Assembly (NCBI GenBank): GCA_016931695.1
Contig: JAFGEI010000025.1
Location: 7,266-71,265 of the forward strand
Direction: 5' to 3'
DNA length: 64,000 bases
Source: Anaerolineae bacterium
GTDB taxonomy: Bacteria; Chloroflexota; Anaerolineae; B4-G1; DUEL01
Translations under genes and position numbers: made by a program
Part shown: piece by piece, positions 17,417 through 57,524 of the stretch
Layout: each line of letters opens with the position of its first letter
Numbering within the stretch: position 1 is the stretch's first letter
Notes under the pieces: model-generated
The model's input: the letters and a program-made list of their open reading frames with translations, nothing else
Told to the model about the DNA's origin: nothing
Databases searched by the model: none

Positions 17417-17422
17417 ACGTAC

Positions 17423-17431
17423 ATTATAGCA
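17423..17431 (-). promoter_or_regulatory. Extended -10 (TGcTATAAT on minus strand), 6 nt upstream of the S8 protease ATG (leaderless)
   Basis: Reverse complement of 17414-17431 reads TGCTATAATGTACGTATG. Confidence 0.5.
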
Positions 17432-17483
17432 CAGCGCGGCCCCCTGCCGCAACCAAACCGGGTTGCTGTTTTTCCCCCCTTTC

Positions 17484-27922: not shown

Positions 27923-28014
27923 CCGCCTCTTTTCTGGGCTGTCGTTCCCCTCGCCGGCGGCAGGAGAGGGGCTCTCGGCCGTTGGAGCAGTGGCAAGGCA
28001 GTTACAATGAAATG

Positions 28015-28023
28015 TGGTATAAT
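28015..28023 (+). promoter_or_regulatory. Extended -10 TGgTATAAT 10 nt upstream of secA ATG (near-leaderless)
   Basis: No SD lies between 28024 and 28033. The homology-supported start MAQGIKGLLTRFVGDSN is at 28034. Confidence 0.45.
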
Positions 28024-28033
28024 GGCGCCACGT

Positions 28034-31333
<3,300 letters not shown>

Positions 31334-37898: not shown

Positions 37899-39624
37899 GG
37901 CGCGGCCAACCCTGGAGCAGTGCCTGCTCCGGGTCGAGCCTGCGCGGCTGCGCGTCATCGCCGAGCACTGGGGCGTTGCACCGCTCCCGGGCAGCAAGCC
38001 GGAGGTCGTTGCGGCGCTGTCAGAGCGCATGCTGGCGCCGGGCGCAGTCGAGCGGGCCTGGCAGGCCCTGACCCCTGACGAGCAGGCCGCCCTGGAATCG
38101 CTGCGCGCCAGTGCGGGCAGAATGGCCTGGCCGACCTTTACCCGGCGCTGGGGCCAGGTGCGCCTGATGGGGCCCGGCCGCATGGCGCGCGAGCGGCCCT
38201 GGGAGAGCCCGCTTTCTCCCACCGAGGGCCTCTGGTACCGCGGCCTGGTCTTTCGCCTGCCCCTGCAAGCCCCCACCGGCCTGTACGAAGCGGCTTTGGT
38301 CCCGGCCGAGCTCGAGGCCCGCTTCCCCATTTCAGGCTTTGTGCCGCCCTTTTACCTGCAGCCCGCCGGCAGTCCGGCGGCGGTCTGCCCGGCCAGCGAT
38401 AATTTCCTGGACGATGCCTGTACTCTTCTCTCCTACCTGCAGAACCACGCCGTCGCGCCGGGCGCCGACGGGCGGTGGCCCGCGCCGGACACTGCGCGCC
38501 TGACCCGCCGCTTGCGGGACCGTGACCCCGGCCGGCTGGCCCTTTTGCACCACCTGGCCCACCGGCTGGGGTGGCTGCGCACGGACCCGGCCGGCCACCT
38601 GCGGCCCGACCCCCAGCCGGTCGCCGCGTGGCTCCAGTCCGCCACCGCCGAACAGCGGCGAACCTTGGCCCAGGCCTGGCGGGACGATCCCAGTTGGAAT
38701 GACCTGTGGCACGTGCCCACCCTTCGGCCGGACGATACCGGTTCCTGGCACAACGACGCCCTGCTGGCGCGGCAGGCGATTCTGCGCTACCTGGCGTCGT
38801 GCCAGCCGGGCGAGTGGTACGCCGTGGCCGCTTTCGTCGCCGCCGTCAAGGAGGCCGATCCCGACTTTCAGCGGCCGGACGGGGATTATTCGAACTGGTA
38901 CATCCGCGACGCGGCGACGGGAGAGTACCATCACGGCTTTGCATCCTGGGATGCCGTAGAGGGGGCGCTGATCCGTTACCTCATCACCGGCCCGCTCTTT
39001 TGGCTGGGATTGTCGAGCCTGGGCGGCGAGCAAGAGACCAACCACTATGGAATGTCCCTCTTTTGCCTCTCGGGCGGTGGGGCGGACTTGATGCGCCATG
39101 CCGAAGCAGCGGCAGCTGAGCCGGAGCCAGCACCGCTGGTCGTCCGCCCGGACCTGACCATTTTGATCCCTGCCCCGCTGCGCTACGAACGGTTCCAGGT
39201 CAGCCGGGTGGCGGATTGGGTCCGCGTGTACGAGGATTACGTCTATCGCCTGACTGCCAGCTCGCTGGCGCGGGCCCAAGAGCAAAAAATCTCCACCGAG
39301 CGGATTGTGGCCTTTTTGCAAGAGGTCGCCGGGAAGGACGTGCCGCGCACCGTGAGCGCCGCTCTCGCTCGTTGGGCCCAGCGGGGAACCCAGGTGCGGC
39401 TGGAGCAGGGCGTGCTGCTGCGGGTGAAGAACGAAGAGGTGATGCGCCAGGTGGCCGCCCACCCGGCCACCCGCCGCTTTATCCGCGAGGTCATTGGACC
39501 GCGGGCGGCGCTCGTCACGCCGGGCGGCTGGCCCCGCCTGGCGCGGGCGCTGGTCGAACTGGGATGGGTGCCGGATTTGAGCGGCGTAGAAGAGACGCTG
39601 GACGATGATGTCGATCCGGGATAA
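37858..39624 (+). CDS. Hypothetical protein (588 aa)
   Basis: Long ORF with high coding-style codon bias. It overlaps the upstream gene by 41 nt and galK by 20 nt. The start is uncertain (next in-frame ATG is 38026). Confidence 0.55.
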   Translation: MTPPQPEQWPGSSEARPTLEQCLLRVEPARLRVIAEHWGVAPLPGSKPEVVAALSERMLAPGAVERAWQALTPDEQAALESLRASAGRMAWPTFTRRWGQVRLMGPGRMARERPWESPLSPTEGLWYRGLVFRLPLQAPTGLYEAALVPAELEARFPISGFVPPFYLQPAGSPAAVCPASDNFLDDACTLLSYLQNHAVAPGADGRWPAPDTARLTRRLRDRDPGRLALLHHLAHRLGWLRTDPAGHLRPDPQPVAAWLQSATAEQRRTLAQAWRDDPSWNDLWHVPTLRPDDTGSWHNDALLARQAILRYLASCQPGEWYAVAAFVAAVKEADPDFQRPDGDYSNWYIRDAATGEYHHGFASWDAVEGALIRYLITGPLFWLGLSSLGGEQETNHYGMSLFCLSGGGADLMRHAEAAAAEPEPAPLVVRPDLTILIPAPLRYERFQVSRVADWVRVYEDYVYRLTASSLARAQEQKISTERIVAFLQEVAGKDVPRTVSAALARWAQRGTQVRLEQGVLLRVKNEEVMRQVAAHPATRRFIREVIGPRAALVTPGGWPRLARALVELGWVPDLSGVEETLDDDVDPG

Positions 39625-40774
39625 AGTGGTCGCGGGGTTTGTGACCCGCTACGGCCAGCCGCCGGACGTGGTGGTGCGGGCGCCGGGACGGGTCAACCTG
39701 CTGGGCGGGCACACCGATTACAACGAGGGCTATGTGCTGCCGGCAGCCATCGACCGCGCGGCCTGGGTGGCAGCAGCGGTGAGGACGGATCGGCAATCCC
39801 GCGTGCTCGCCCTCGACCGGGAGGAGGAAGCGGTTTTCGACCTGGACGCGATCGCTCCCCGGCAGGGAAATTGGAGCGACTATCCCCGCGGCGTTGCCTG
39901 GGCGCTGTCCGAGCGGGGGCTGGCGCTGCCCGCAATCGACGCCAGCCTGGCCTCCGACGTGCCGGTCGGGGCCGGGCTCTCTTCCTCTGCCGCCGTGGAA
40001 GTGGCCTTTGCCTGGGCGTGGCGCACGCTAGCCGGATTCGACCTGGACCGCATCTCCCTGGCCCTGGCCTGCCAGCAAGCGGAAAACGACTATGTGGGGG
40101 TTCGCTGTGGCGTGATGGACCAGGTGGCCTCGGCCTGTGGGCGGGCCGGCCATGCCTTGCTGCTCGACTGCCGAACGCTGCAGGTGGACCCGGTGCTGCT
40201 GCCAGAGACCGCCGCCATTGTCGTGGCCGATAGCCGCGTGAGGCGGTCGCTGGCTGCCTCCGAGTACAACCGCCGCCGCCAGGAGTGCGAGGAGGTGGTG
40301 CGGCAGCTCCAGCGGGAGCTGCCGCATGTCCGGTCGCTGCGGGACGTCTCGCCGGAGACGTTGGCGCAATGGGCGCACCGACTGCCCGTCGAGCTGTACC
40401 GTCGCGCTCGCCACGTCGTGACCGGCAACGCCCGCGTTTTGACGGCGGCGGCAGCGCTGCGATGCGGGGATTTGGCCGCGCTGGGGGAAGCGATGCGCCG
40501 CTGTCACGAGAGCCTGCGCGACGACTACCAGGTCAGCTCGCCGGAGCTGGACCTGTTAGCAGAGACAGCGTGGTCGGTTGGGGGATGTTACGGGGCCCGC
40601 CTCACCGGGGCCGGCTTTGGCGGCTGCGTCGTCGCCGTGGTGGATTCGGGAGCGGCCGGCAATCTCGTCGAATGCCTGAAGCGGGCGTTTCGAGATCACT
40701 TTGGCCAGCTCCCCGCCGCCTACACCTGCCACTCTGCCGACGGGGTGACCGCACAAGCCGCGTTGACTGGCTGA
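39605..40774 (+). CDS. galK: Galactokinase
   Basis: GRVNLLGGHTDYNEG, GAGLSSSAA and GARLTGAGFGGC are GHMP kinase and galactokinase signatures. Confidence 0.9.
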   Translation: MMSIRDKVVAGFVTRYGQPPDVVVRAPGRVNLLGGHTDYNEGYVLPAAIDRAAWVAAAVRTDRQSRVLALDREEEAVFDLDAIAPRQGNWSDYPRGVAWALSERGLALPAIDASLASDVPVGAGLSSSAAVEVAFAWAWRTLAGFDLDRISLALACQQAENDYVGVRCGVMDQVASACGRAGHALLLDCRTLQVDPVLLPETAAIVVADSRVRRSLAASEYNRRRQECEEVVRQLQRELPHVRSLRDVSPETLAQWAHRLPVELYRRARHVVTGNARVLTAAAALRCGDLAALGEAMRRCHESLRDDYQVSSPELDLLAETAWSVGGCYGARLTGAGFGGCVVAVVDSGAAGNLVECLKRAFRDHFGQLPAAYTCHSADGVTAQAALTG

Positions 40775-40789: not shown

Positions 40790-45274
<4,485 letters not shown>

Positions 45275-45500
45275 GGTTCCTCCATACTTCCCGATTTATA
45301 TCGGCGGTAACGACCGCTTTCCCTTCTCCGGTCGTGGGAAGGCATGCGGGTGAAAGGGACGTGTCGTTACCCGGCGCGCAAAGACAAAGCGCCTGCCGAG
45401 CACCGCCGCGCTTTTTCAAGTGACAGGGATGGTCTCTCATCGGAATCTACATTATAGCCATAGAAGGCGATTTTGTCAAGGTTTTGCTGCATTAGCTTTT

Positions 45501-48500
45501 TCAGTTGAGGGGCAAACCGTCGCGGATGCGGCGGTAGAGGGCGGTGGTTTCGGACGAGGGGTCGATGTCCAGCTCGTACTGCAGGGCATCGATGCACCGC
45601 TGGTACTGGGCAAGGGCATGGCCGCGTTCCCCGCAGAGAGCGTAGGCGCGCATCAGTTGGCGGTAAAAACTCTCCCGCAGGTTGTCCATCTCTAATCCCC
45701 GGCAGAGTATTTGGATGGCGGTGCGGTATTGGCGCTTGGCCAGCAGCCGTCCGGCAAGTTCGTCGATGGCCGCCAGGCACTGCTCGCGCAGCGCTTCCCG
45801 GCGCATGAGACACCAGTCGGTATAGCAGTCTTCGAGAAAGTCCGCCTTGTAGAGCTGAGTGGCCTGCTGCAGCTTTTCCGCGCGCCGGCCAAGTTTCGAA
45901 TCGTTGAGCAGGTTCTCAAAGGCTTTGACGTCGAACCAGTATTCGAGATCGGGATGGATGGAGTACAGGTGCAGGTGGTGGTCAAAGTAGAGCGCCTCCT
46001 GGCGCAGCGCCCGATTGAGGCGGGATTTTGTGGAGTGAAATGTTGCCTTGACCTTGTGCGGCGGTAAATCCGGCCATAGCGCGGCAGCAATTTGATCCCG
46101 CGAGCGCGGCGCGTGGGTCAGCAGGTAGAAGAACAGGTGGCGCGCGGATGCTGCTTCCCACTCGGACAAGGTGATCTCGGCCCCGTCCCGTTCCACTCGC
46201 CCGTGCCCAAAACCAAAGATACGCAATTTATTTTGCTTCTCTACCGGCGGGAGAAACTGCTTCAAGACCGCCTGTGCAGTTTGTTCCATGCTCCGCATCT
46301 GCTCCAACGATGACGCCAGCAGGTCGCCGCCAATCCCCTGCTCACAGGCGCGTTCCAGAAGCGGCATCTGGTATCGCCCTTCGACGACAAAAAGAGGTTG
46401 CTGCTGCTGCTGGGGGTCGATCGTTTCGAACAATTCCTCCAGGCTGTTCAGCGCCTCTTGCTCTTGTCCTGTGGCAAACAAGGCGCAGGCGGCAAAGAAC
46501 CGCGCGCGGGCCAGTTCGCCCTGGGCTCCGATTTGGGCTAGCTGCTCGCAGGCAGCGGACAAAGTCGCCGTTCCAGTTTCGACCTCTCCCATCTCGACCT
46601 GGACGAGCCCTAGCGAGGCGCTATATCGGCCAAGCTGGTAGGGTGATTTTTGCTGCGCGGCAAGATCGAGGCCCTGTCGAATTGCCTGGCACGCCGCGGC
46701 CCGGTCGCCCTGGCAGCGATAGATCAACCCCAGCGTTTCTCGCCCGTACGCGGCAAGAAATTTGTGCTCCAACTCGTCGGCAATTGTCAGCCCCAGGGTA
46801 CAAAACTCGGCCGCCCGGGCCAACACCCCGAGGTCGCGCAGCAGTTCTCCCAGGCTGAGCAGCGTTCCGCCCTCCACTTGCCGGTAGCCGGACTGGCGGG
46901 CCAGTTCCAATGCCTCCAAGAGCAGGGGCAGCGATTCGCTGTACCGTCCCATTGTGTAGAGGCAAAAACCCACGTCGTTGAGGGCAATTGCCAGAGCGGA
47001 CGGATTGCCCAGCTGCCGCCGCATGGCAACCGCTTCCCGCTGCACGACGACCGCTTCTCTCAACTGCCCCTGCCGCTGCAGGCACGCCCCCAGCGCGAGA
47101 CGGGCAGAGGACTGGTCGAAGGGGTCGGCCTCTACCTGGGCGCAGTGGATGGCTTGCTGCAGGTGGTATTCGGCCTCTGCCAGCCGTCCCAGCGCCATGC
47201 AGGAGCGGCCGATGATGCGGTGCGCCTCGTACGTCACGGGGACGTTGGCCTCCTGGACCATCGCCAGGACCTCCCGGCCCAATTTGAGCGCATCCTCGTA
47301 CCGTCCCCGCCCCAACCAGAGCTGGCAGCGCAGCAGCTGGGCGTATGCCAGCCCTTGCGCGTCGGCAAGCGTCCGATAACCGCTCTCGGCAGTTTCGATC
47401 AGGGCGAGGGACTGCTCCATCTGCCCCAGAGCGTCGGCGGCGCGGGCAGAGAACAGGGCCAGGCGGGGAAAGCGTTCGCGCAGTGCTTCCGGCAGCGCCA
47501 ATGCCCAGGCCACCAGCGTGTCCAGGCGCCCGGTTTCGTGCATCCGCTTGGCCGCCGACTCCATCACTTTTCCGGCCTGGGCGTGCGCCTGCACGATAAG
47601 GTAGTGATGGACCGCCTCTTCAGGTTGGTCATAGGCCTCGAACCAGCGGGCGGCGCGGTGGTGCGCTGTGGCCCACTCGCTTTCCCGCTCGCGCTTGAAT
47701 TTTTCCTGGAGAAACTTTTGCATCAGGTGGTGATACTTGTACCAGCCCTGCTCCAGGCACGTCACGAACAAGTTCTGCTTCTCGATCAGGGTCAGCAGTT
47801 TGTCCGCTTCTGCCAGCCCCAGCGCCTCCCGGCAGAGATCCGGGTTCATGGCCTGCAAGGTCGAGGAGGCGAGGAGGAAATCCTTTACCGCGGGCTGTTG
47901 GTGGATCAAGACTTCCTGGGCCAGGTACTCGTAGACAGACTGCTCCAGGGGGGGGATGCGCAGCGCGGGCACTGTGCCCCCCGCGCCCGCGGCGTGGGCG
48001 GCGAGGAGGATGCAGGCGATCCATCCCTCCGACTGCTGCGCCAGCTCCGCGGCCTGTTGCTCGCTGAGAGAGAGATCAAAGTTCTGCGCCAGCAGCCGCT
48101 GGATCTCGTCGGCGCGAAAGCTGAGCGCCTCCTGGTCGATGTAGCCCACCTCGTAGCGCGCCGCCAGCCGCACCAGCGGCGCCAGGTTGGGCGCGGTACG
48201 ACCCGCCGTGACCACCAGAAACTGGCCCTGTTGGTAGTGCAACAGGCGCTGGAGGATCGCATCGACCTCGGGTGCACGTGCCAGGTGGTGGTAGTCGTCC
48301 AGTACCAACACGAACCAGTGCGGGACAACCTCGATCACCTCGTTGAGCAGTGCGTCGACGATGCCGGGCGCGCCGTGGGAGAGGTCCTGCTGCCCTTTCA
48401 GCACCTGGTGAGTGCGCGCGCCAAAGTCGGGGAAGCGGTGCTGCAGGCTGAGCAGCAGGTGTTCCAAAAAGATGTACGGGTCGCGGTCCTCGGGGTCCAG

Positions 48501-48701
48501 GCTGTACCAGCACACGGGGGCTTCCAGGTGGTGGGCAAAGTCGACCAGCAGCGTTGTCTTGCCGTAGCCGGCCGGGGCGGAGACGGTGATCAGCTTGCGG
48601 TCGGTCAGGTCGTAGAGCAGGCTGAGCAGCCGCTGGCGGGTGAGGAGGGATTCGCGTCGTTGGGGGAGCAGGACCTTGGTGACCAGCGGCGAGAGGGACA
48701 T
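45501..48701 (-). CDS. STAND-type NTPase transcriptional regulator with inverted SARP architecture (P-loop NTPase, TPR array, C-terminal OmpR-type wHTH plus BTAD)
   Basis: N-terminal Walker A APAGYGKTT with hhhhDD Walker B VLVLDDYH. A long middle region carries TPR-like repeats. The C-terminus has LRIFGFGHGRVERDGAEI...ASARHLFFYLLTHAPRSRDQIAAALWPD (wHTH) followed by LRESFYRQLMRAYALCGERGHALAQYQRCIDALQYELDIDPSSETTALYRRI (BTAD). Confidence 0.8.
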   Translation of the reverse strand: MSLSPLVTKVLLPQRRESLLTRQRLLSLLYDLTDRKLITVSAPAGYGKTTLLVDFAHHLEAPVCWYSLDPEDRDPYIFLEHLLLSLQHRFPDFGARTHQVLKGQQDLSHGAPGIVDALLNEVIEVVPHWFVLVLDDYHHLARAPEVDAILQRLLHYQQGQFLVVTAGRTAPNLAPLVRLAARYEVGYIDQEALSFRADEIQRLLAQNFDLSLSEQQAAELAQQSEGWIACILLAAHAAGAGGTVPALRIPPLEQSVYEYLAQEVLIHQQPAVKDFLLASSTLQAMNPDLCREALGLAEADKLLTLIEKQNLFVTCLEQGWYKYHHLMQKFLQEKFKRERESEWATAHHRAARWFEAYDQPEEAVHHYLIVQAHAQAGKVMESAAKRMHETGRLDTLVAWALALPEALRERFPRLALFSARAADALGQMEQSLALIETAESGYRTLADAQGLAYAQLLRCQLWLGRGRYEDALKLGREVLAMVQEANVPVTYEAHRIIGRSCMALGRLAEAEYHLQQAIHCAQVEADPFDQSSARLALGACLQRQGQLREAVVVQREAVAMRRQLGNPSALAIALNDVGFCLYTMGRYSESLPLLLEALELARQSGYRQVEGGTLLSLGELLRDLGVLARAAEFCTLGLTIADELEHKFLAAYGRETLGLIYRCQGDRAAACQAIRQGLDLAAQQKSPYQLGRYSASLGLVQVEMGEVETGTATLSAACEQLAQIGAQGELARARFFAACALFATGQEQEALNSLEELFETIDPQQQQQPLFVVEGRYQMPLLERACEQGIGGDLLASSLEQMRSMEQTAQAVLKQFLPPVEKQNKLRIFGFGHGRVERDGAEITLSEWEAASARHLFFYLLTHAPRSRDQIAAALWPDLPPHKVKATFHSTKSRLNRALRQEALYFDHHLHLYSIHPDLEYWFDVKAFENLLNDSKLGRRAEKLQQATQLYKADFLEDCYTDWCLMRREALREQCLAAIDELAGRLLAKRQYRTAIQILCRGLEMDNLRESFYRQLMRAYALCGERGHALAQYQRCIDALQYELDIDPSSETTALYRRIRDGLPLN

Positions 48702-48765
48702 GGGCTACCGTCTGCGGCGCGGGCTGCCGGCGGGGTGGTTGTCCCGGTCGGTGGGGTGCATTGTC

Positions 48766-51700
48766 CTATTCGGGCTGTCGTTCCACATAGATGGTGACGA
48801 CCTGCGATTCGGCCTGGTTGCCCGCCGCGTCATAGACCACCGCCCGGAAGCGTTGTGCACCCAGCGCGGAGAGAATCCAGTTGACGTTGTAGGGCGGGAA
48901 ATTCCGCACCGCAAAGGGTTCTTGCTCGTCGTTGTGGTAAAACTCGACCCGGTCGATGGCATAGTTGTCGGTGACCTCGGCGTTGACGTTGACCCACTCG
49001 TCTTCTCCCAAGGTGTAGGTCTTTTCTGCTGGGGGATAGGTCAGGTTGATGGTCGGCGGCGTGTTGTCGACCGTGACCTGGATGGTGGCCTGGCGCAGCG
49101 AGAGGTCGTGGTTCACCACCGTCAGCTGCAGGCTGTACAGGCCGTCCAATCCGGTCAGGTCCCAGTACTCTAGCACGTTGTTTTCCACTTGGTTGCCGTG
49201 GTCCGGCCCGATCTGAATCCACTCGCTGGGGTTCAACCCTTCTCCAAAAGCGAGTCGATAGAAGGCGAAGGAGCCGCCGCGCGCATTGCCGATAATCTCG
49301 ATCGGGCCGCTGGAGATGTAGGCGTAGGGAGTCGGTTGGGTAATGGCCACCTCTGGGTTGACGGGTGATGGCCCATAGACCGTGTCGTATTCGGTCGGCG
49401 GCGTTGCCGGGCGGTCCTCCTCGGGCAGGCTGGCCAGCCAATCGGCGGCCTCACGCGGGTAGACGGCAAAGACCTGCTCCTCGCACAGTTCGGGCGGCGT
49501 ATAGACGGTGCAGAGCCGGCCCGTCTCCCGGTTGACGGAAAAGGTCTGGTGGATGTCGCAGCGCTCGGTCGGCGCGGTGCCGGGGATGAACAGCTCGGTG
49601 ACCGTGGGACAGTGGGCGGTGGGCAAAAGGCCGGATACGGCACAGACGCTGTGCTCTTCCAGGCCATCGGGCCGGGTGAAGGGAACGATTTCCTCGCCCT
49701 GCAAGGCGTACTCCATCACCGCGTGCCAGATGGGCGCGGCGCCTTTGGAGCCGGGCAGGTTTTCCATCTCGCTGTTGTTGCTGTTGCCCACCCAGACCCC
49801 GGTGACGATCTGGGGGGTAAAGCCGACCGTCCAGGCGTCCCGCCAGTCGTTGGTCGAGCCGGTCTTGGCCGCCGCCGGGCGGTCCTGGGAGAGCTCCAGC
49901 GGGTTGGGGGAGCCAAAGGCTTCCCAGCGAGCCCGCCGGTCGGAGAGGATGTTGGTGATCAGGTAGGCCAGCGGCGGTTCAAAAATCACCTGCTGCTGGG
50001 GTTCCGTGTACTCGTACAGTACGTTCCCATTGCGATTCTCTACCCGCAGGACCGCTACCGGGTCCAGCTCGCGATATCCCTGCAGCCGCTGCTCTGTCGG
50101 GATGGGTTGGCCGATCATCACGCCGCCGTTGGCATAGACGGTGTTGGCGTAGGTGAGGTCGAGCAAGCGCACCTCGCCGCCGCCCAGGGTGAGGCTCAGC
50201 CCGTAAAACTCGAGCCCGCGGTCGAGGCTGTTGATGCCCATCCTGTGCGCCATGCGAATGGTGTTGTCCACGCCCGCCAGCTGCAGCGCCGCAACTGCCG
50301 GGACGTTGTAGGAACGAGCCAGCGCCAGCCGCAGCCGCTGGGGGCCGTGGTAGTCCCGGTCATAGTTTTCCGGCACGTAGGGGGCCTGGCCGGGCTGCTC
50401 GAAAGCGGTTCGCACGTCCCAAAAGAGGTGGGCGGCGTTATAGCCCTGGGAGAGCAGGGTGACGTAGGTGAACGGCTTGAAAGAAGAACCGGGCTGGCGC
50501 AGTCCCAGGGCGGCGTTAAAGTGGCCGTCGATGGACTCGTCCCAGTAATCGAGGCTGCCGACCATGGTCAGGATCTCGCCGGTGCCCGGCCGGATCACCA
50601 CTACTGCAGCGTTCGACACCTGGTGATCAAAGCCGACGTCGCTGGCACGCAGGGGGGGCAGGAAGCGGGCCGCTTCGCACCCCGCCGCAATTGCCTCGTC
50701 GAGCACCTCCTGGTCGCCCTCCCCCGACAGGCGGCGGACGTGCGTCTGGGCAGCGCACTCGGCCTGCAGTTGCAGGTCATAGTCGAGGGTGGTGTATACC
50801 CGCAGGCCGCCGCGGTTGACCAGCTCGGGCCCAAACATCTCTTCCAGCTCGTTGCGCACATAGACCGAAAAGTGAGGGGCCAGGAAATCGAACTGTTCTG
50901 TCGGCGAGGCCAGCTGCCACGGCTCGACCTTGGCGGCCTCCGCTTCCGCCTCGGTGATGCAGCCCTGCAGGACCATCTGGTCCAGCACCAGGTTCTGCCG
51001 CTCGCGGGCGGCGACGGGGTTGTGGAAGGGGTTCATCCAGGGGTACTGCGGAATCGCAGCCAGCGTTGCCGCTTCGCTCAGGCTCAACTCGCTGGCTGGC
51101 TTGCCGAAATAGATTTGAGCTGCCGATTCGATACCGTACGCCATCCCGCCGTAAGAGTTGGTGTTCAGGTACCATTCCAGGATCTGTTCCTTGTCGTAGC
51201 GGCGGGTGATCTCGACTGCCAGGATCCATTCCCTGATCTTGCGGGCATAGTCCTGGAATTCGGGACCCTCGACGCTCACGATGCGGTCGGCCGGATCGAT
51301 GAGCACGTTCTTGATCAACTGCTGGGTGATCGAGGAGCCGCCCTGGATCTGTTCGCCGCGCAGGTTCGAGATCAGGGCACGCGTGATGCCGCGCGGATCG
51401 ACGCCTGGGTTCTCCCAGTACGTGCGGTCTTCGATGGCGATCGTCGCGCAGATCATGTGCTCGGGGATCTCTTCCAGCGGTGCCCAGACCCGATCCCCGG
51501 CGTTGGGATCGATCACCTCCCACAGCAATACCTGCCCCGTGCGGTCATAGATGTGCGTCGTCTCAAAGTTTTCCTCGACAAACTCGATCTGCTCCGGTTC
51601 GGGCAGGTCCTGGGCAAAGTAGGCATAGACGCCGACGACGCTGCCCACCACGCCGGATACGGAAAGCAGCATCGAGGTCAAGAGCAGCAGCAGGGACATG

Positions 51701-51801
51701 GCGACGACCTGGAGCAGGCGGCCTGGGCCCGTGCGGGCCTTGGCCCGCTTGCGCTGCCGCCGCTGCAAGGTGACGATTCGGACGATCCACTTGGGTGTCA
51801 A
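48766..51801 (-). CDS. Class A penicillin-binding protein (PBP1A; glycosyltransferase plus transpeptidase) with C-terminal Ig-like extension
   Basis: GT51 motifs EDRTYWENPGVD, GGSSITQQL and RKIREW are present. Transpeptidase motifs include SSFKP (SxxK). A roughly 250-aa C-terminal extension carries two Ig-like repeats. TTG start with RBS GGAGGT. Confidence 0.9.
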   Translation of the reverse strand: MTPKWIVRIVTLQRRQRKRAKARTGPGRLLQVVAMSLLLLLTSMLLSVSGVVGSVVGVYAYFAQDLPEPEQIEFVEENFETTHIYDRTGQVLLWEVIDPNAGDRVWAPLEEIPEHMICATIAIEDRTYWENPGVDPRGITRALISNLRGEQIQGGSSITQQLIKNVLIDPADRIVSVEGPEFQDYARKIREWILAVEITRRYDKEQILEWYLNTNSYGGMAYGIESAAQIYFGKPASELSLSEAATLAAIPQYPWMNPFHNPVAARERQNLVLDQMVLQGCITEAEAEAAKVEPWQLASPTEQFDFLAPHFSVYVRNELEEMFGPELVNRGGLRVYTTLDYDLQLQAECAAQTHVRRLSGEGDQEVLDEAIAAGCEAARFLPPLRASDVGFDHQVSNAAVVVIRPGTGEILTMVGSLDYWDESIDGHFNAALGLRQPGSSFKPFTYVTLLSQGYNAAHLFWDVRTAFEQPGQAPYVPENYDRDYHGPQRLRLALARSYNVPAVAALQLAGVDNTIRMAHRMGINSLDRGLEFYGLSLTLGGGEVRLLDLTYANTVYANGGVMIGQPIPTEQRLQGYRELDPVAVLRVENRNGNVLYEYTEPQQQVIFEPPLAYLITNILSDRRARWEAFGSPNPLELSQDRPAAAKTGSTNDWRDAWTVGFTPQIVTGVWVGNSNNSEMENLPGSKGAAPIWHAVMEYALQGEEIVPFTRPDGLEEHSVCAVSGLLPTAHCPTVTELFIPGTAPTERCDIHQTFSVNRETGRLCTVYTPPELCEEQVFAVYPREAADWLASLPEEDRPATPPTEYDTVYGPSPVNPEVAITQPTPYAYISSGPIEIIGNARGGSFAFYRLAFGEGLNPSEWIQIGPDHGNQVENNVLEYWDLTGLDGLYSLQLTVVNHDLSLRQATIQVTVDNTPPTINLTYPPAEKTYTLGEDEWVNVNAEVTDNYAIDRVEFYHNDEQEPFAVRNFPPYNVNWILSALGAQRFRAVVYDAAGNQAESQVVTIYVERQPE

Positions 51802-51925
51802 GGATTACCTCCGCACATCATCGATTGCTACTGACCCATGCATAGTAACAGAAAGTACCCAAGTTGGCAAGTGAAAGAAAATTCGCAGCTTGTAGGGGCG
51901 AGGCACCACCTCGCCCCTACAAATG

Positions 51926-52663
51926 CTACGCCTCTTTTCTCAACACCAGAAAGTGGGACAGGCCAAAAGCACGCAGCGGTGTGCGTTCCAGCGTGTAGGT
52001 CACAATGCGCAGGACGTGGGCCAGCAGGGAGGAGCGGGCAGCGAGCTTGTCGTAGCCGGGGTAGATGGGAGTGTGGTACAACGGCCGGGCCGGCAGGCCG
52101 TGGAACAGGGCGCGCAGGCTGCGCCCTGTGTAGGCCCGCACGTGCGGGGCCAGGCGACGCCGCAGCACGTCCGGCAGGTAGTTGACCAGCGGGATGTTGC
52201 CGAAACGGTACCGTCCTCGCCAGTAGATGCCGTGGGTCTCGAAGGGATAGAGGCGGTTGGGGACGAAAACGACGATGCTTCCGCCGGGCCGCGCGACCCG
52301 CACCATCTCGGCGGCGCAGGCGCGGTCGTCGTCGACGTGCTCGAGGACCTCGTGGGAAAAGACGAGGTCGAAACTACCGTCGGCAAAGGGCAGCCGCTCG
52401 CCGAGCGACTGCACGACCCCGCCGGCCCGCTCCTGCGCCTGCCGCGCCCGCTCTCGCTCCAGCTCGACGCCAAAGACGTGGGCGGTGAGCTGCTGAAAAG
52501 CAGCGGTGTACATCCCCACGCCGCAGCCGACGTCCAGCACCCGCTGCCCGGCCGCATCGGCCCAGCGGCGGACCATCTCAAAGCGCCGCTCCTGTCCCGC
52601 CTGCCAGACCAGGGAGGGGCAGCCGCGGACAGCGCGGGGGTCGTCAATGGGGGCGTGGGTCAT
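51926..52663 (-). CDS. Class I SAM-dependent methyltransferase
   Basis: The start is taken at MTHAPIDD after RBS GGAAAGGAAAAG. Motif I is VLDVGCGVGMY. The longer ORF-track start (52879) is probably spurious. Confidence 0.75.
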   Translation of the reverse strand: MTHAPIDDPRAVRGCPSLVWQAGQERRFEMVRRWADAAGQRVLDVGCGVGMYTAAFQQLTAHVFGVELERERARQAQERAGGVVQSLGERLPFADGSFDLVFSHEVLEHVDDDRACAAEMVRVARPGGSIVVFVPNRLYPFETHGIYWRGRYRFGNIPLVNYLPDVLRRRLAPHVRAYTGRSLRALFHGLPARPLYHTPIYPGYDKLAARSSLLAHVLRIVTYTLERTPLRAFGLSHFLVLRKEA

Positions 52664-52691: not shown

Positions 52692-55600
52692 CTAGGGCAA
52701 CAACATCTCCAATTGAGCGAAATCGTCCGGCCCCAGCTGGTCGACGAGTTCCTGGGAGAGCGTATAGCCGGCCAGCATCTCTTCCTGGCTTGGCGACGTC
52801 CCGGCCGGCCAGGCGACGTCCAGGATGCGCGGGTAGTTGGTGCCGCCGGGCCGGCCGCCGACCTGCCATTGGGTCGCATCAGGTTCCAGCTCGCGCAGGT
52901 TGTCCGGCCCGTAGCCGTCGTGGCTCATGACCAGGACGGCGTACTGCCAGCTCGCCGGATCGTCCCCCAGCACCGACTGCGGCACCTTGACTGTCACCTT
53001 GCGCTGCCCCGGGTCGGGCAGGACCTGGATCTCGGTCTCGACCGCCTCCGGCTCGCCATCTGCACCTGGCTGGTAGAGGGTGGAGAACCAGCCGTTGACC
53101 CACAGCGCCCAATCCCAGCCGTAATCGGCGCCCAGGGCGGCGTTGCGGGAGGGCAGCAAGAGCCGCGCGCCGCTCCCCGGCCCGTCCTGATCGATGTAGA
53201 CGTCAAAGGACTGCAGGGAGAGGCCGGTGGGAGAGCCCCAGGCGTTGTCGACCGGGCCGCGGACGACGAACTTGAAGACGATGCTCTCCTCGTCATAGCC
53301 GACGCTAAAGCTGGTCAGGTCAAAGACCCCGCCCTGAAAGACCGAGTCGGTGGGGTAGTGATAGTCGCCCGGGCCATAGTCGTCTCCCTCCGGGTCGGCT
53401 ATCTCCAGCACCGTCGTCGTCCGCCCCAGGTCCGGCGTCACCAGGCGGGCTGGACCGCCCTCGGGCAGCACGGCGAGGTCGACCGGCCCTGTCTCTGCCG
53501 GCTGGCTAAAGACGGCGCGGAGGTTGACCGGGTCGCCGGTGTCCAACTGCGGGGCAATGACCGCGAAAGGAATTCCCAGCTCAATTGTCTTGCCGGCAAG
53601 GACAAAATCGGAGAGCGCCTGTGGCTCAATCCAGCCCCCGGCGCCATCGGCAGCGTAGAGGGTCGCCGCAACTGGCCTGGCTGACAGGGCTACCTCGAGC
53701 AAGTGGGTCGCGCCAAAGCCGAGCACCGTCTCCCGCCCGCCCCAGCGGGAGAAGGGGTTGGTCGCTCCGCCGCCGGGGACAGCGATATAGACGCCGAGGT
53801 ATGCTTCGCCCGCCTGGGGGGGGGCGGGCCATTCGCCAGGGCTGTCAAAGCGCAGGTAGAGATTTTGCGCGTCAAAGCCATAGGCCAGACGGTCAAACGT
53901 CTCCCCCGCCAGCGCCTGATAGTAGCCGCCCAGGGCCCACTCCTCCTCGTCGGCCTGGCCGTCGATCTGGGGGGAAATCAGGCCGGTGGCGGGCTGGTTG
54001 GGCGGCTGGGCCCGCTGCGGGATGACCGGCACGTCGAGAAAGGCCGGCGGTTCTTCTCCCAGCAGGCGGCAGACCTGCTGCAGGGTGCTGCGGAACTGCT
54101 GGTCGAAGGTGTCATCCTGGCCCGAGTCCTGGTCGGCCCCGTACCACCAGAACCAGTCCGACCCCTCGGCGACGTACATCATCTCCTGGGCGGCGGCCAG
54201 GCTCGCGGCGTCGATCGAGCGGCTGCCGCGCTCGTAGAGGGCCAGCAGTTCCCGCACCTGGTAGATATAGTCCCAGGCCTGGTTCTCCTCCTCCTCGCCG
54301 ATCCAGGTCGAGTAGGTGCCGTCGACCCAGGAACCGGCCCACAGGTCGTCGAGGGGCTGCGGCGCGGGGAACCACTCCAGGTACTCGGAGGGGGTCACGG
54401 TGACGATCTCTTCGTCCTCCGAAAGCAGTTGGTAGAGGGTGTGCAGGAATTCTTTGCCGTCGTTCTCGTAATACTCCCAGGCGTTCTCGCCGTCGAGGAT
54501 GACGGTGACGATGTGCGGTCCTTCCGTTCCCTGCTCTTGTAGTTGAGCGTGGATATTGTGCAGCCGGTCGACAAAGTCCTGCGCCGCCGCCTCGCCGTCC
54601 AGGCCGGAATAGGTGAACGAGACCTTGTCGGAGAGGACGTGGTCGCGGAAAAAGATGGCGACGGGCGCGGACACGATGCCGCCGCTCTCCTGGACCGTGT
54701 AGGGCTGGTAGAGCAGGTCGATCTCTTCGACGGTGTCGCTGCTGTCGCGTTCAAAGCCATCCATCTCCAGCGAATGGGCCAGCACCCGCTCGTCGGAGGC
54801 CATCCACTGGATGCCGGCCCGCCCGATCAGGCCGACCATGGCCTGGGCCACCGCGCCCTCGGCGGGCCACATGCCGCGCGGATCGACGCCAAAGTGATCG
54901 CGATAGTACTGCACTCCCAGCTCGACCTGGGCGACGGCGTCCTGGCCAAAGCGGAACGAGTCCGCCGGAAGCTCGGCGCCGGGCATGGCCTGGGTCGCCA
55001 GCCCGGTGTCGATGAGCAGGGGCAGGATGGGGTGGGCAAACGGGGTCATGGTCACCTCGATCTGGCCGTCCGCTTGCATCTCGCGGTGGAGCGGGATGAC
55101 CTCGTTAATGATGCGCCAATGTTCGTTGAGGATCGTCTCTTTATCCGCCTCGCTGTAATCCCGCCCCTGGGCGACCAGGGAGGCCAGCGGCTCCTCGGCC
55201 AGAAAATCGGGATCGGTCCAGCCGAGGTTAAAGAGCACCTGCAGGTCGCGGTAATCCTGCGCGGTCCAGACCGCCATCGCCGCCTGGATGTCGGCGTCGC
55301 TGGCGTCGGGCCGCATGTCCCGCAGCTCGACGTAGCGGGGAAAGCGCTCGATGATGTTGGCGTTGATGTCGAAAAAGTAGCGCAGGATGAACCACTTTTG
55401 CTCCGTGGTCAGCTGGTCGGCCGGGACGCGGCTCATCTCCCAGTACATGTCGGTCGCGCCGTTCGAGAGGTCGTCCAGCTGGCGGATCAGGCTGGGGGTC
55501 AGGTTGAAGGTGGCGTGGATGTCGGGGTATTCCTGCAGGATCGCTGCCATGTCGTAATAGTCCTTGGCGGCGTGGAGGCGGACCCACGGCTTGACATAGA

Positions 55601-55754
55601 TGCCAGTGTCCGGCTCCTGGTAGTAGACGGGTTGGTGCTGGTGCCAGATGATCGCCAGGTAGAGCACGTCCTCGTCGGGGCGGGACTGGCAGGTGGGAAA
55701 CAGGCCCACGGTCAGGGCGGCGAGGATGGCGAGGCAAAGCGTTTTGGTTTTCAT
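52692..55754 (-). CDS. Secreted GH57-family alpha-glucan-active enzyme with C-terminal glucodextranase-like domain
   Basis: Signal peptide. The GH57 region 1 (AIIWHQHQP), the catalytic Glu region (ILDGENAWEYY) and further GH57 regions are present. The C-terminal GDDYGPGDYHYPTD is typical of glucodextranase domain C. Confidence 0.85.
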   Translation of the reverse strand: MKTKTLCLAILAALTVGLFPTCQSRPDEDVLYLAIIWHQHQPVYYQEPDTGIYVKPWVRLHAAKDYYDMAAILQEYPDIHATFNLTPSLIRQLDDLSNGATDMYWEMSRVPADQLTTEQKWFILRYFFDINANIIERFPRYVELRDMRPDASDADIQAAMAVWTAQDYRDLQVLFNLGWTDPDFLAEEPLASLVAQGRDYSEADKETILNEHWRIINEVIPLHREMQADGQIEVTMTPFAHPILPLLIDTGLATQAMPGAELPADSFRFGQDAVAQVELGVQYYRDHFGVDPRGMWPAEGAVAQAMVGLIGRAGIQWMASDERVLAHSLEMDGFERDSSDTVEEIDLLYQPYTVQESGGIVSAPVAIFFRDHVLSDKVSFTYSGLDGEAAAQDFVDRLHNIHAQLQEQGTEGPHIVTVILDGENAWEYYENDGKEFLHTLYQLLSEDEEIVTVTPSEYLEWFPAPQPLDDLWAGSWVDGTYSTWIGEEEENQAWDYIYQVRELLALYERGSRSIDAASLAAAQEMMYVAEGSDWFWWYGADQDSGQDDTFDQQFRSTLQQVCRLLGEEPPAFLDVPVIPQRAQPPNQPATGLISPQIDGQADEEEWALGGYYQALAGETFDRLAYGFDAQNLYLRFDSPGEWPAPPQAGEAYLGVYIAVPGGGATNPFSRWGGRETVLGFGATHLLEVALSARPVAATLYAADGAGGWIEPQALSDFVLAGKTIELGIPFAVIAPQLDTGDPVNLRAVFSQPAETGPVDLAVLPEGGPARLVTPDLGRTTTVLEIADPEGDDYGPGDYHYPTDSVFQGGVFDLTSFSVGYDEESIVFKFVVRGPVDNAWGSPTGLSLQSFDVYIDQDGPGSGARLLLPSRNAALGADYGWDWALWVNGWFSTLYQPGADGEPEAVETEIQVLPDPGQRKVTVKVPQSVLGDDPASWQYAVLVMSHDGYGPDNLRELEPDATQWQVGGRPGGTNYPRILDVAWPAGTSPSQEEMLAGYTLSQELVDQLGPDDFAQLEMLLP

Positions 55755-55823: not shown

Positions 55824-57524
55824 CTATTCCCGCCGTTCTAACAGCAGCACAATTCCCTGTCGCGGTGGCAGGTTTCCCCGTGGGATGTAGCTGAACGCAC
55901 CATCTTGGCCCACCGACAGATCACCGGCCCTCGTGTCGGTCAGCAAATCGAGGGCGTGGTACTCGCCGGGAGAGAGAGGCCCGGCAAACAGCGAGAGCGT
56001 GCAGTTGCGCTCCCGCTCGGCGCCGAAATTCGCCACCACCAACAGCGTCTCCGTTTCGTGGTGGCGCAGGAAGGCATAGACGCGGTTGCAGCTGCTCTCC
56101 AGCGGGATCAGCTCCCCCCAGCGCAGGGCGACGTGGTCGCTGCGCAGGTGGATCAGCCGCCGGTAGTGGCTGAGCAGCGAGTGGGGATCGGCCGATTCGG
56201 CCGCCACGTTGATGGTCGCATAGTCCTCGTTGACCGGGTTCCACGGCCGGCGGGTGGTGAACCCGGCGTGCGCGTCGTCGCTCCACTGCATCGGTGTGCG
56301 GATCGACGGGTCAGGCTTTTGCCCGCTCATGCCGATCTCTTCGCCATAATAGATAAAGGGCACGCCGGGCAGGGTCAGCAGCAGCGTTGCCGCCAACCTG
56401 GCCTGGTCGACGTCGCCGCCCAGCTCACTCATCACCCGCTCCTGGTCGTGGTTGGTCAGAAAAGTGGCGTATTGACCTTGCGGGTAGGCAGACTGGGCCT
56501 GCGTCACGACGTAGGCCAGCCAATCCGGGATGCCATTGTCCACCCCGTCGACGATCGCGCTCGCCAAGTCGAACTCAAAGACCAGGTCGAGTTCGTCGTC
56601 AACGACGTAGGAAGCGGCCTGGCTCGTGTCATCCCACACCTCGCCGACGGTCAGCACGTCGGGGCCGACGTCGTCGGTGAACCGGTCAAAGTCGGCCAGC
56701 CAGGCGTGGGTGGCGGCGGTGTTTTCCTGTTGCTGGCCTTCCTCGACGAGGTGGCGCGCGGCGTCGAGGCGAAAGCCGTCCGCCCCCATGTCGACCAGCC
56801 AGAAATGGGCCACGTCGTGCATCGCCGCCGTCACTTGCGGGTTGCGGTAGTTGAGGTCGGGCATCTGGTCCCAGAAGAGGCCGTAGTAGAAATCGTCGCC
56901 CCGGCGGTGCCAGACCCGCTGGTCCCACGGCCCGTTGTAGCCGGGGTTCTCCTCGCTCCAGACGTACCAGTCGCGGTAGGTCGCATCTGGGCCGACCGTG
57001 GCGTTGACGAACCAGGGATGGGCGGCGGAGGTGTGGTTCAGCACCAGGTCGACGATGACGCGGATGCCGCGGGCGTGGGCCGCGTCGATCAGGGCGCGGA
57101 AATCCTCGTTGGTGCCATAATCTTGCTCGACGGTCATATAGTCGGTCACGTCGTAGCCGTGGTAGCTGGGTGACTGGGCGATGGGCATGAGCCAGATGCC
57201 GCTGACGCCCAGGTCGTCGCTGGTGGTGGGATCGCCGTCGTTCAGATAATCCAGCTTTTCGATCAGGCCGGGCAGGTCGCCGATGCCGTCGCCATCGCTG
57301 TCGTAAAAACTGCGCACAAAGACTTGGTAAAAGACGGCGTCGTTCCACCAGCCGCTCTCGCCGGAGGGAGGCGGGACTGGGGTATCGGTTGGGGCGGCGG
57401 GGGGCAGCGTCGGGTTGCAGTTGGCAAGGACGAGCAGTGTCGTCAGCAGGGCAATTGCCCGCCCGCCAGGCCGGGATCGGGCCCGCGCCGGACGGCAGCG
57501 GTGAATGGCGAAACGTGTGGTCAT
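55824..57524 (-). CDS. GH13 alpha-amylase family lipoprotein
   Basis: Lipobox LVLANC. The GH13 conserved regions DLVLNH, GFRLDAARH, EVWD and FLTNHDQ are all present. Confidence 0.9.
   Translation of the reverse strand: MTTRFAIHRCRPARARSRPGGRAIALLTTLLVLANCNPTLPPAAPTDTPVPPPSGESGWWNDAVFYQVFVRSFYDSDGDGIGDLPGLIEKLDYLNDGDPTTSDDLGVSGIWLMPIAQSPSYHGYDVTDYMTVEQDYGTNEDFRALIDAAHARGIRVIVDLVLNHTSAAHPWFVNATVGPDATYRDWYVWSEENPGYNGPWDQRVWHRRGDDFYYGLFWDQMPDLNYRNPQVTAAMHDVAHFWLVDMGADGFRLDAARHLVEEGQQQENTAATHAWLADFDRFTDDVGPDVLTVGEVWDDTSQAASYVVDDELDLVFEFDLASAIVDGVDNGIPDWLAYVVTQAQSAYPQGQYATFLTNHDQERVMSELGGDVDQARLAATLLLTLPGVPFIYYGEEIGMSGQKPDPSIRTPMQWSDDAHAGFTTRRPWNPVNEDYATINVAAESADPHSLLSHYRRLIHLRSDHVALRWGELIPLESSCNRVYAFLRHHETETLLVVANFGAERERNCTLSLFAGPLSPGEYHALDLLTDTRAGDLSVGQDGAFSYIPRGNLPPRQGIVLLLERRE

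Follow-up and report, generated by a model that had tools for sequence, protein, structure and literature searches.

A MalT-type STAND regulator with a C-terminal SARP module, an apparent orphan in an Anaerolineae bacterium

What kind of protein is encoded between rpoC and a PBP1A-family gene of an Anaerolineae bacterium, and what could it control? The gene in question occupies positions 45501..48701 on the (-) strand of a stretch of 64,000 nucleotides (contig JAFGEI010000025.1), referred to here as the window, and its translation in the list of open reading frames (ORFs) has 1066 amino acids (aa) and an ATG start. An earlier examination of the DNA letters alone (the sequence-only reading) took it for a regulator in which the domain order of AfsR and the classical SARPs is inverted. 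Our analysis indicates that the protein is best described as a MalT-type STAND regulator carrying a SARP module in place of the LuxR helix-turn-helix (HTH). The MalT plan begins with an N-terminal NOD, itself made of a P-loop part, a helical part and a winged helix, after which come an arm, a long TPR-like sensor and, at the C-terminus, an effector that binds DNA; on this plan, with a SARP effector, the protein is probably an intact, signal-dependent transcription activator, which is an orphan at this locus and acts in trans.

The NCBIfam MalT model (NF003420) matched the protein with E=1.7e-69, aligning aa 8-560 with MalT residues 5-560. The NOD matched that of MalT (PDB 8bob) in sequence (E=3.4e-30 over aa 8-371) as well as in fold (TMt 0.84, root-mean-square deviation 3.1; Foldseek), and the best structural match of the full-length model was PH0952, a TPR-containing STAND protein (6mfv; 720 columns, E=1e-14). 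The score on the MalT equivalog model NF003420, 234.8 bits versus a cutoff of 537, is far below the level of the maltose regulon activator, and neither a GerE nor a LuxR family matched the regulator in a Pfam scan at E<=0.1. In regulators of the MalT clade, it is usual for the DNA-binding effector to be C-terminal. The novelty with respect to this clade lies, therefore, in the kind of effector (SARP for LuxR HTH) and not in the order of the domains.

The uninterrupted (-) strand frame supposed by the sequence-only reading was found, and the order which it had read from the sequence (NTPase, TPR, winged HTH, BTAD) was recovered by Pfam, NCBIfam, structure models and Foldseek; the full-length AlphaFold2 model had a pLDDT of 90.1 and a pTM of 0.81. 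The P-loop nucleotide-binding domain of the NOD (aa ~20-240; 47982..48644, (-) strand), delimited by the match to 8bob, contains the two motifs that had been picked out in the translation, namely the Walker A sequence APAGYGKTT (aa 42-50, with GYGKT at aa 45-49; 48552-48578, (-)) and the Walker B sequence VLVLDDYH (aa 131-138, with LVLDD at aa 132-136; 48288-48311, (-)). Residues G45, K48 and D136 were invariant in an alignment of 47 homologues, and the Pfam families AAA_22 and AAA_16 matched the P-loop region (aa 23-158) slightly under their cutoffs. The winged-helix domain of the NOD (aa ~256-323; 47733..47936, (-)) was recognized from the secondary structure of the model and from the family WHD_MalT (PF25873), precomputed on an identical protein that NCBI holds under the name 'MAG: tetratricopeptide repeat protein [Anaerolineae bacterium]'. 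The arm and the TPR-like sensor superhelix (aa ~325-815, ~24 helices; 46257..47729, (-)) were supported by Pfam, the NCBIfam MalT model, the structure model and the Foldseek match to 6mfv; TPR families cover aa 455-700 (TPR_12, E=3e-19), and TPR_MalT scored 44.1 bits against a cutoff of 45. A flexible linker (aa 816-825; 46227..46256, (-)), with pLDDT <50 at aa 819-822 of the full-length model, leads to the effector.

The effector consists of an OmpR-type winged HTH (aa 826-923; 45933..46226, (-)) and a BTAD (aa 924-1060; 45522..45932, (-)), and both sequences quoted for them in the sequence-only reading were present (LRIFGFGHGRVERDG as aa 826-840, and LRESFYRQLMRAYALCGERGHALAQY within the BTAD). 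The BTAD was confirmed by Pfam (PF03704, E=1.1e-26, aa 925-1060), with profile positions 3-146 of 146 covered. The other half of the suggested Trans_reg_C/BTAD pair gave no Trans_reg_C match, and the winged HTH was therefore tested by structure prediction. In the models it comprises beta strands at aa 826-842, helices at aa 851-862, 868-875 and 881-899, and a wing at aa 904-915; the N-terminal strands are seen in the full-length model and lie beyond the separate model of the C-terminus (aa 841-1066, 226 aa, pLDDT 96.8). The predicted recognition helix is KVKATFHSTKSRLNRAL (aa 883-899; 46005-46055, (-)). The six best PDB matches of the C-terminal model were all SARP modules, belonging to EmbR (2fez/2ff4) and AfsR (8k60/8hvr), with TMq 0.73-0.80 over 222-238 columns in Foldseek, and EmbR aligned over 257-261 columns, winged HTH included, in the search with the full-length model. 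At the sequence level, the NCBIfam BagI/FevR SARP model matched aa 867-1059 (E=4.6e-4). On the strength of these models, the C-terminus is a genuine SARP module.

The arrangement is not peculiar to this protein. Among its 120 best homologues, most of which have 1033-1126 aa, 97-100% query coverage and 33-61% identity, BTAD was found in 118 and WHD_MalT in 119, the exceptions including partial sequences. A genome scan located 44 loci at which a MalT-type N-terminus is combined with a SARP module at the C-terminus, in Chloroflexota (Anaerolineae, Caldilineae, and Ktedonobacteria including Tengunoibacter tsumagoiensis), Acidobacteriota (Pyrinomonadaceae, Blastocatellia), Desulfosarcina variabilis and others; overall, the family belongs mainly to Chloroflexota, but also to Acidobacteriota, Armatimonadota, Desulfobacterota and other phyla. 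When the SARP module was compared with 1.84 billion cluster representatives, 210 matched at E<=1e-30 and 18,064 at E<=1e-10. Of the 150 best representatives, ~60 of them full-length proteins of ~965-1370 aa, 147 had the module at the very C-terminal end, while in the other three it was N-terminal in two longer proteins and made up the whole of one protein of 249 aa.

According to a 2024 review, SARPs are exclusive to actinobacteria, and the SARP domain is N-terminal in every class (small, medium, large and SARP-LAL) (PMC10972967). The module of the window protein, at aa 826-1060 of 1066, does not have this N-terminal position. Databases label members of the family 'MalT / DNA-binding SARP family' (JGI) or 'BTAD domain-containing putative transcriptional regulator' (NCBI), and no paper describing the C-terminal SARP/BTAD arrangement or the family was found in the literature searched. 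The family is thus widespread, annotated in databases and experimentally uncharacterized, a variant of two known kinds of regulator.

The relatives also indicate what such a regulator may control. All nine close relatives examined (L002, L003, L004, L005, L007, L008, L009, L017 and L088) have two small genes, called here A and B, downstream of the regulator and on the same strand. The order of the cassette is a terminator, two to four tandem 12-bp boxes, a -10 element, peptide A, optionally a DUF5317 gene, and protein B (L002, 13247-13949; L004, 13103-13767; L005, 5686-6478; L007, 13220-13883; L088, 6872-7556). In these relatives the boxes, 2-4 direct repeats of 12-bp period (consensus ACGTTTACCCCT), follow a terminator hairpin; from the end of the last box it is 6 bp to a TAnnnT hexamer, which reads TATAAT in L002, L004 and L088. 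Peptide A has 52-57 aa, with a basic N-terminus, a hydrophobic helix that is probably signal-like, and a short Gly-rich tail, usually with Cys (for example CPSTGGGGCTGG following YA; tail pattern CPxGGGGCxGG). Protein B, of 67-111 aa, matches the family Os1348 (NF038399; 39.2 bits against a cutoff of 40) and the Pfam family Frankia_peptide, both NHLP-clan matches being below cutoff.

In relatives whose SARP modules are more distant (25-38% identity), the plan is the same and the boxes are others, namely TTTGAAGCCTG in four loci, TTTGGTGAGTG x3, CCTTTGTCCCC x3, CGTTCATAAC x2 and a TTTGTC-type box x3, with a -10-like hexamer 6-8 bp past the last box. Their A-like peptides have 44-50 aa and a ...GAP sequence with a Gly-rich tail, and a polytopic membrane protein of the DUF5317 family (PF17248, E=1e-33) is often encoded between A and B (L039, 9270-10327; L034, 8491-9559; L026, 9266-10399; L020, 9360-10621; L011, 4159-5616; L046, 6640-8016). 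Altogether, the cassette was present in 9/9 close relatives and roughly half of the distant relatives, and protein B in 21/44 loci with the SARP C-terminus and in 0/~43 loci without it. The recognition helix covaries with the box sequence across loci: the helix K[VA]KA[TSN]FHTTKFRL pairs with ACGTTTACC-type boxes in nine loci, RLKMRFKN[DE]xYRLRRA with TTTGAAGCCTG in four, and other helices with other boxes. Neither this combination of regulator, boxes and peptide genes nor DUF5317 was found described in the literature that was searched.

Some of the relatives show variations of this arrangement. At locus L024 the A gene occurs twice in tandem, and the A-like peptides of L014 and L016 are internally repeated. 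In Tengunoibacter tsumagoiensis Uno3 (L023, 3103-5304), the only cultured strain in which a cassette-like locus was seen, two proteins are encoded upstream of, and divergently from, the regulator: protein B, of 77 aa, and one of 487 aa with a motif resembling that of nonribosomal peptide synthetase condensation domains (NHFLTDG). A 61-aa ORF on the regulator strand, lying between those two genes, might be A-like, although the likeness is doubtful.

The window copy has none of this. In tblastn and HMM searches that covered every stop-to-stop ORF of >=25 aa in the 64 kb, no homologue of A, B or DUF5317 reached E<=1. Box arrays were sought in the window by the consensus pattern with 3 mismatches, by position weight matrix pairs at 11, 12, 13 and 24 bp, by TRF with a minimum score of 30, as any 11- or 12-bp tandem with >=10/11 matches, and as relaxed 8-of-9 repeats followed by TAnnnT; no array was found by any of these, the results being empty or at chance level overall (1 candidate versus 0.55 expected). 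There is also no paralogue of the regulator elsewhere in the window. The absence of a target cluster in cis, which the sequence-only reading had remarked, therefore holds within the window; because the relatives keep a partner and an operator in cis, it is a peculiarity of the window copy and not of the family. The place of the relatives' terminator, boxes and peptide genes is taken in the window by the promoter of rpoC, and PBP1A and rpoC adjoin none of the other 87 related loci. On the other hand, all 33 invariant positions of the family are kept, including G45/K48, D136 and R168. Because the cassette elements are absent from the 64 kb and the replacement F893S in the recognition helix is unique to this copy, the regulator appears to be an orphan.

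The neighbours named in the sequence-only reading were confirmed, and both lie on the same strand as the regulator: rpoC at 40790-45274 (-) (TIGR02386, 1672 bits), and the PBP1A-family gene at 48766-51801 (-), with Transgly, Transpeptidase and Big_7 domains. The same reading had described the regulator as monocistronic and flanked by hairpins, but neither claim found support. Compared with shuffled sequence, no better folding was seen in either intergenic region (z = +0.20 for the 64-bp gap on the PBP1A side, z = -0.52 for the 226-bp gap before rpoC). A scan revealed no terminator-like site between the regulator stop and the rpoC promoter, and neither a promoter-like nor a terminator-like site in the 64 bp that separate the PBP1A stop from the regulator start (48702..48765, (-)). 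The three genes share one strand, and the sole upstream promoter-like site and hairpin precede PBP1A (51842..51920, (-): hairpin at 51920-51892, then TTGCCA-17-TACTAT at 51870-51842). Because of this, co-transcription of the regulator with PBP1A is at least as likely as transcription on its own, and the site at 51842..51920 is likely to be the start of a putative PBP1A-regulator transcript. On the other side, a perfect sigma70-type promoter (TTGACA-17-TATAAT, 12/12 matches; 45451..45479, (-)), 21 nt past the regulator stop, serves rpoC.

If the protein works as its better known counterparts do, the following sequence of events may be proposed. At rest it would be an ADP-bound monomer, autoinhibited through contacts between the sensor and the nucleotide-binding domain, and a ligand on the TPR sensor would bring about ATP binding and multimerization, as in MalT and PH0952 (PMC6468293). 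The SARP modules, arrayed on tandem direct repeats, would then replace the -35 element and recruit RNA polymerase, as in AfsR (PMC10936776). In the relatives, the target would be the box promoter directly downstream, driving the A / optional DUF5317 / B cassette. The window copy would have lost the cassette and its operator, or never had them, and its target promoter, if the protein is active, would lie outside the 64 kb.

Several points weigh against regarding the window copy as an active regulator of this kind. The dependence on ATP, the multimerization and the binding to DNA are all expected from homology. Trans_reg_C did not match the isolated C-terminal 253 aa even at E<=10, and the period of the relatives' boxes is mostly 12 bp, versus 11 or 22 bp for characterized SARPs, whose direct repeats overlap the -35 region, with the last one close to the -10 element. 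In the recognition helix, S890 and S893 stand where the 10 related loci of the clade, which encode 9 distinct proteins, all have a T and an F, and 13 other positions conserved in >=85% of the relatives also differ, among them S167G, which adjoins the invariant R168; these departures could reflect either a changed specificity or the onset of decay. The closest database homologue has <=61% identity. Finally, the gene is called an orphan with respect to a window of 64 kb.

An extension of the proposed role, and a rather unlikely one in our opinion, is that the whole family is a peptide-signalling module, or a control module for peptides resembling ribosomally synthesized and post-translationally modified peptides, in Chloroflexota and other phyla, of which the window gene would be a solo receptor. 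The TPRs would then sense the processed Gly/Cys-rich tail of peptide A, or the NHLP-clan protein B, and the DUF5317 membrane protein might help in the export or processing of the peptide. The multimerized receptor, bound to the 12-bp boxes, would turn on its own peptide operon in a positive feedback. The window gene might then be compared with the LuxR solos: retargeted by F893S and expressed together with a cell-wall synthase, it would hear the peptides of other cells.

The main alternative to an orphan acting in trans is an early-stage relic, that is, a regulator that lost its cassette and operator by rearrangement and is now functionless and drifting. This would agree with its being the sole member of the clade without the cassette (0/1 versus 9/9), with the unique F893S accompanied by T890S and the 13 departures including S167G, and with the lack of a terminator or promoter of its own. 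It appears unlikely, however, for a reading frame that is unbroken over 3.2 kb, keeps 33/33 invariant positions and is predicted to fold confidently over its full length, and whose junction is the same in a second assembly (a Logan contig, possibly from the same sample).

A local role was also considered, in which the regulator would act on PBP1A, on rpoC, or on the alpha-glucan genes 4-9 kb upstream, which encode a GH57 protein with a glucodextranase C-terminal module (52692-55754, (-)) and a GH13 alpha-amylase (55824-57524, (-)). These genes are on the same strand and close by, the sensor is MalT-like, and an 11-mer of the L007 operator, TCGTTACCGCC, is found ~20 nt before the rpoC start. 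Yet no tandem box array was present in any intergenic region, those upstream of GH13 and GH57 included; none of the 87 related loci has PBP1A or rpoC nearby; the MalT equivalog score (235 versus 537) does not point to a maltose regulator; and the rpoC promoter, with its perfect consensus, should need no activator. As regards the 11-mer, which is identical to the first operator unit of L007, its spacing to any -10 element is wrong, and it forms the 3' arm of a hairpin in the rpoC leader; it is unexplained and probably unrelated to the regulator. We regard a local role as quite unlikely. Since operator-like repeats were not found upstream of GH57 and GH13, nor of a galactokinase gene (39605-40774, (+)) that is also located near the regulator, the proximity of the sugar genes to a MalT-like regulator is probably a coincidence.

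Some features of this neighbourhood deserve mention in their own right. The rpoC leader, of ~170 nt (45275-45450, (-)), follows the promoter, which has no terminator between it and the regulator, and contains a hairpin of 73 nt (45302-45374, (-); -27.3 kcal/mol, z = -2.1, with 15/500 shuffles as stable), whose base is a 9-bp inverted repeat (GGTAACGAC / GTCGTTACC). Two of the four CGTTACC heptamers of the window sit within this hairpin, and Rfam gave no match over the whole 64-kb window, the hairpin included. The rpoC gene is not preceded by rpoB, and no other ORF of >1000 aa in the 64 kb encodes an RNA polymerase subunit, the others being a subtilisin-like protease (13130-17452), SecA (28007-31333), PBP1A and the GH57 protein. 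At the 3' end of rpoC, a tandem repeat (40820-40978, (-); period 24/27/48, TRF score 210-215) gives the beta' subunit an acidic C-terminal tail with ~6 DDEMAELLE-like repeats. Between GH57 and the hairpin and promoter ahead of PBP1A, an ORF resembling S-adenosylmethionine-dependent methyltransferases (VLDVGCGVG) lies at ~51926-52662 (-), where the ORF list gives overlapping ORFs on both strands.

The inverted arrangement proposed in the sequence-only reading corresponds to a circularly permuted AfsR-type large SARP of the NB-ARC clade, whose SARP module would have moved from the N- to the C-terminus. The protein does have the same three blocks as AfsR (SARP, STAND NTPase, TPR), and it matches the NCBIfam AfsR model (E=2.3e-19) and PDB 8jke (E=8e-8). 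These matches are, however, confined to the TPRs (aa 441-692), while the NOD is that of MalT, and WHD_MalT and TPR_MalT are the families matched; no NB-ARC family appeared in the Pfam scan at E<=0.1. Moreover, the MalT clade already has a C-terminal DNA-binding effector. Because the NOD matches MalT and the AfsR matches cover the TPRs only, the protein is designated MalT-type; a permuted AfsR is very unlikely. What endures of the earlier description is a STAND NTPase with a TPR array and a SARP module, and what falls is its derivation by inversion from AfsR or a classical SARP.

A STAND ATPase combined with TPRs is also the layout of the anti-phage Avs proteins, whose TPRs would sense a phage protein. 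This function is hardly credible here, considering that the only PADLOC match was to a generic TPR model (E=6e-6), with none to Avs or another defence system, that the effector is a transcription-activator module and not a nuclease or other toxic domain, and that the relatives adjoin operator boxes and small peptide genes, not defence islands.

The sequence-only reading had also raised the possibility of a frameshift or fusion near 46300-46500, which the analysis did not bear out: the corresponding aa 734-801 are modelled with confidence and are collinear in alignments of 12, and then of 47, full-length homologues. An artefact of assembly or annotation, by which a MalT-like ATPase and a small SARP would have been joined through a frameshift or a chimeric contig, has a practically negligible probability, because >100 independent homologues of ~1064 aa from many samples align end to end with the regulator and are collinear across the junction, the linker (aa 816-825) is a short loop, and the gene and both flanking junctions are reproduced identically in the Logan contig, a second assembly possibly from the same sample. 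Two genes fused by error were thereby ruled out.

It remains to compare the regulator with known systems. With MalT it has in common the NOD, WHD_MalT, the TPR_MalT-like sensor and a DNA-binding effector at the C-terminus, and presumably also multimerization driven by inducer and ATP (PMC6468293). It differs in having a winged HTH and a BTAD instead of the LuxR/GerE HTH of MalT; in its relatives, putative tandem 12-bp direct repeats abutting the -10 element take the place of the MalT boxes, and genes for small peptides, not maltodextrin functions, are associated with the regulator. PH0952 of Pyrococcus horikoshii (6mfv) is likewise a transcription factor of the STAND type with a TPR sensor, but its DNA-binding domain is N-terminal and ArsR-like.

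Among large SARPs, AfsR of Streptomyces coelicolor similarly combines a SARP module, a STAND NOD and TPRs, and the SARP folds are alike (8k60/8hvr, TMq 0.75-0.80). In both cases a small target gene is located directly 3' of the regulator (afsS for AfsR, the peptide cassette in the relatives). The afs box spans -40 to -19 (PMC10936776), so that by calculation 6 bp separate its end from the -10 element, and the operator of the relatives likewise ends at a distance of 6 bp. In AfsR, however, the SARP module is N-terminal, the NOD is of the NB-ARC type and the operator has an 11-bp period, whereas here the module is C-terminal, the NOD belongs to the MalT clade and the period (in the relatives) is 12 bp; furthermore, AfsR is actinobacterial, unlike the present family of Chloroflexota and other non-actinobacterial phyla. 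The SARP-LAL proteins PimR, SanG and FilR also have a MalT/LAL-like ATPase region in addition to a SARP module, and no LuxR HTH (PMC10972967), but in them the SARP module is N-terminal, and they are actinobacterial and encoded inside antibiotic biosynthesis clusters. The structure that the C-terminal module matched best was EmbR of Mycobacterium tuberculosis (2fez/2ff4; E=5e-8, 234-261 columns, 23-24% identity); EmbR carries a C-terminal FHA domain after its SARP module, and has no STAND ATPase or TPR sensor.

The relatives, finally, invite an analogy with the RRNPP systems (PlcR-PapR, Rap-Phr, AimR-AimP), in which a TPR regulator is likewise followed by a small peptide gene with an operator before it. 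The peptide of the relatives, with its hydrophobic signal-like segment and short conserved C-terminal tail, would fit this analogy. The RRNPP proteins have neither a STAND ATPase nor a SARP module, and the window copy departs from them in having no peptide gene.

The SARPs have been described as actinobacterial proteins with the SARP domain at the N-terminus, and the present family places the same module C-terminally on a MalT-type ATP switch in other phyla. Its members outside the window supply candidates for both operator and target, and hence a tractable way to approach transcription control, and possibly signalling by peptides, in a phylum that has been little studied. Greater interest attaches to the family-wide cassette of regulator, operator and peptide found outside the window, next to which the window copy is more modest, an intact orphan with an altered recognition helix.

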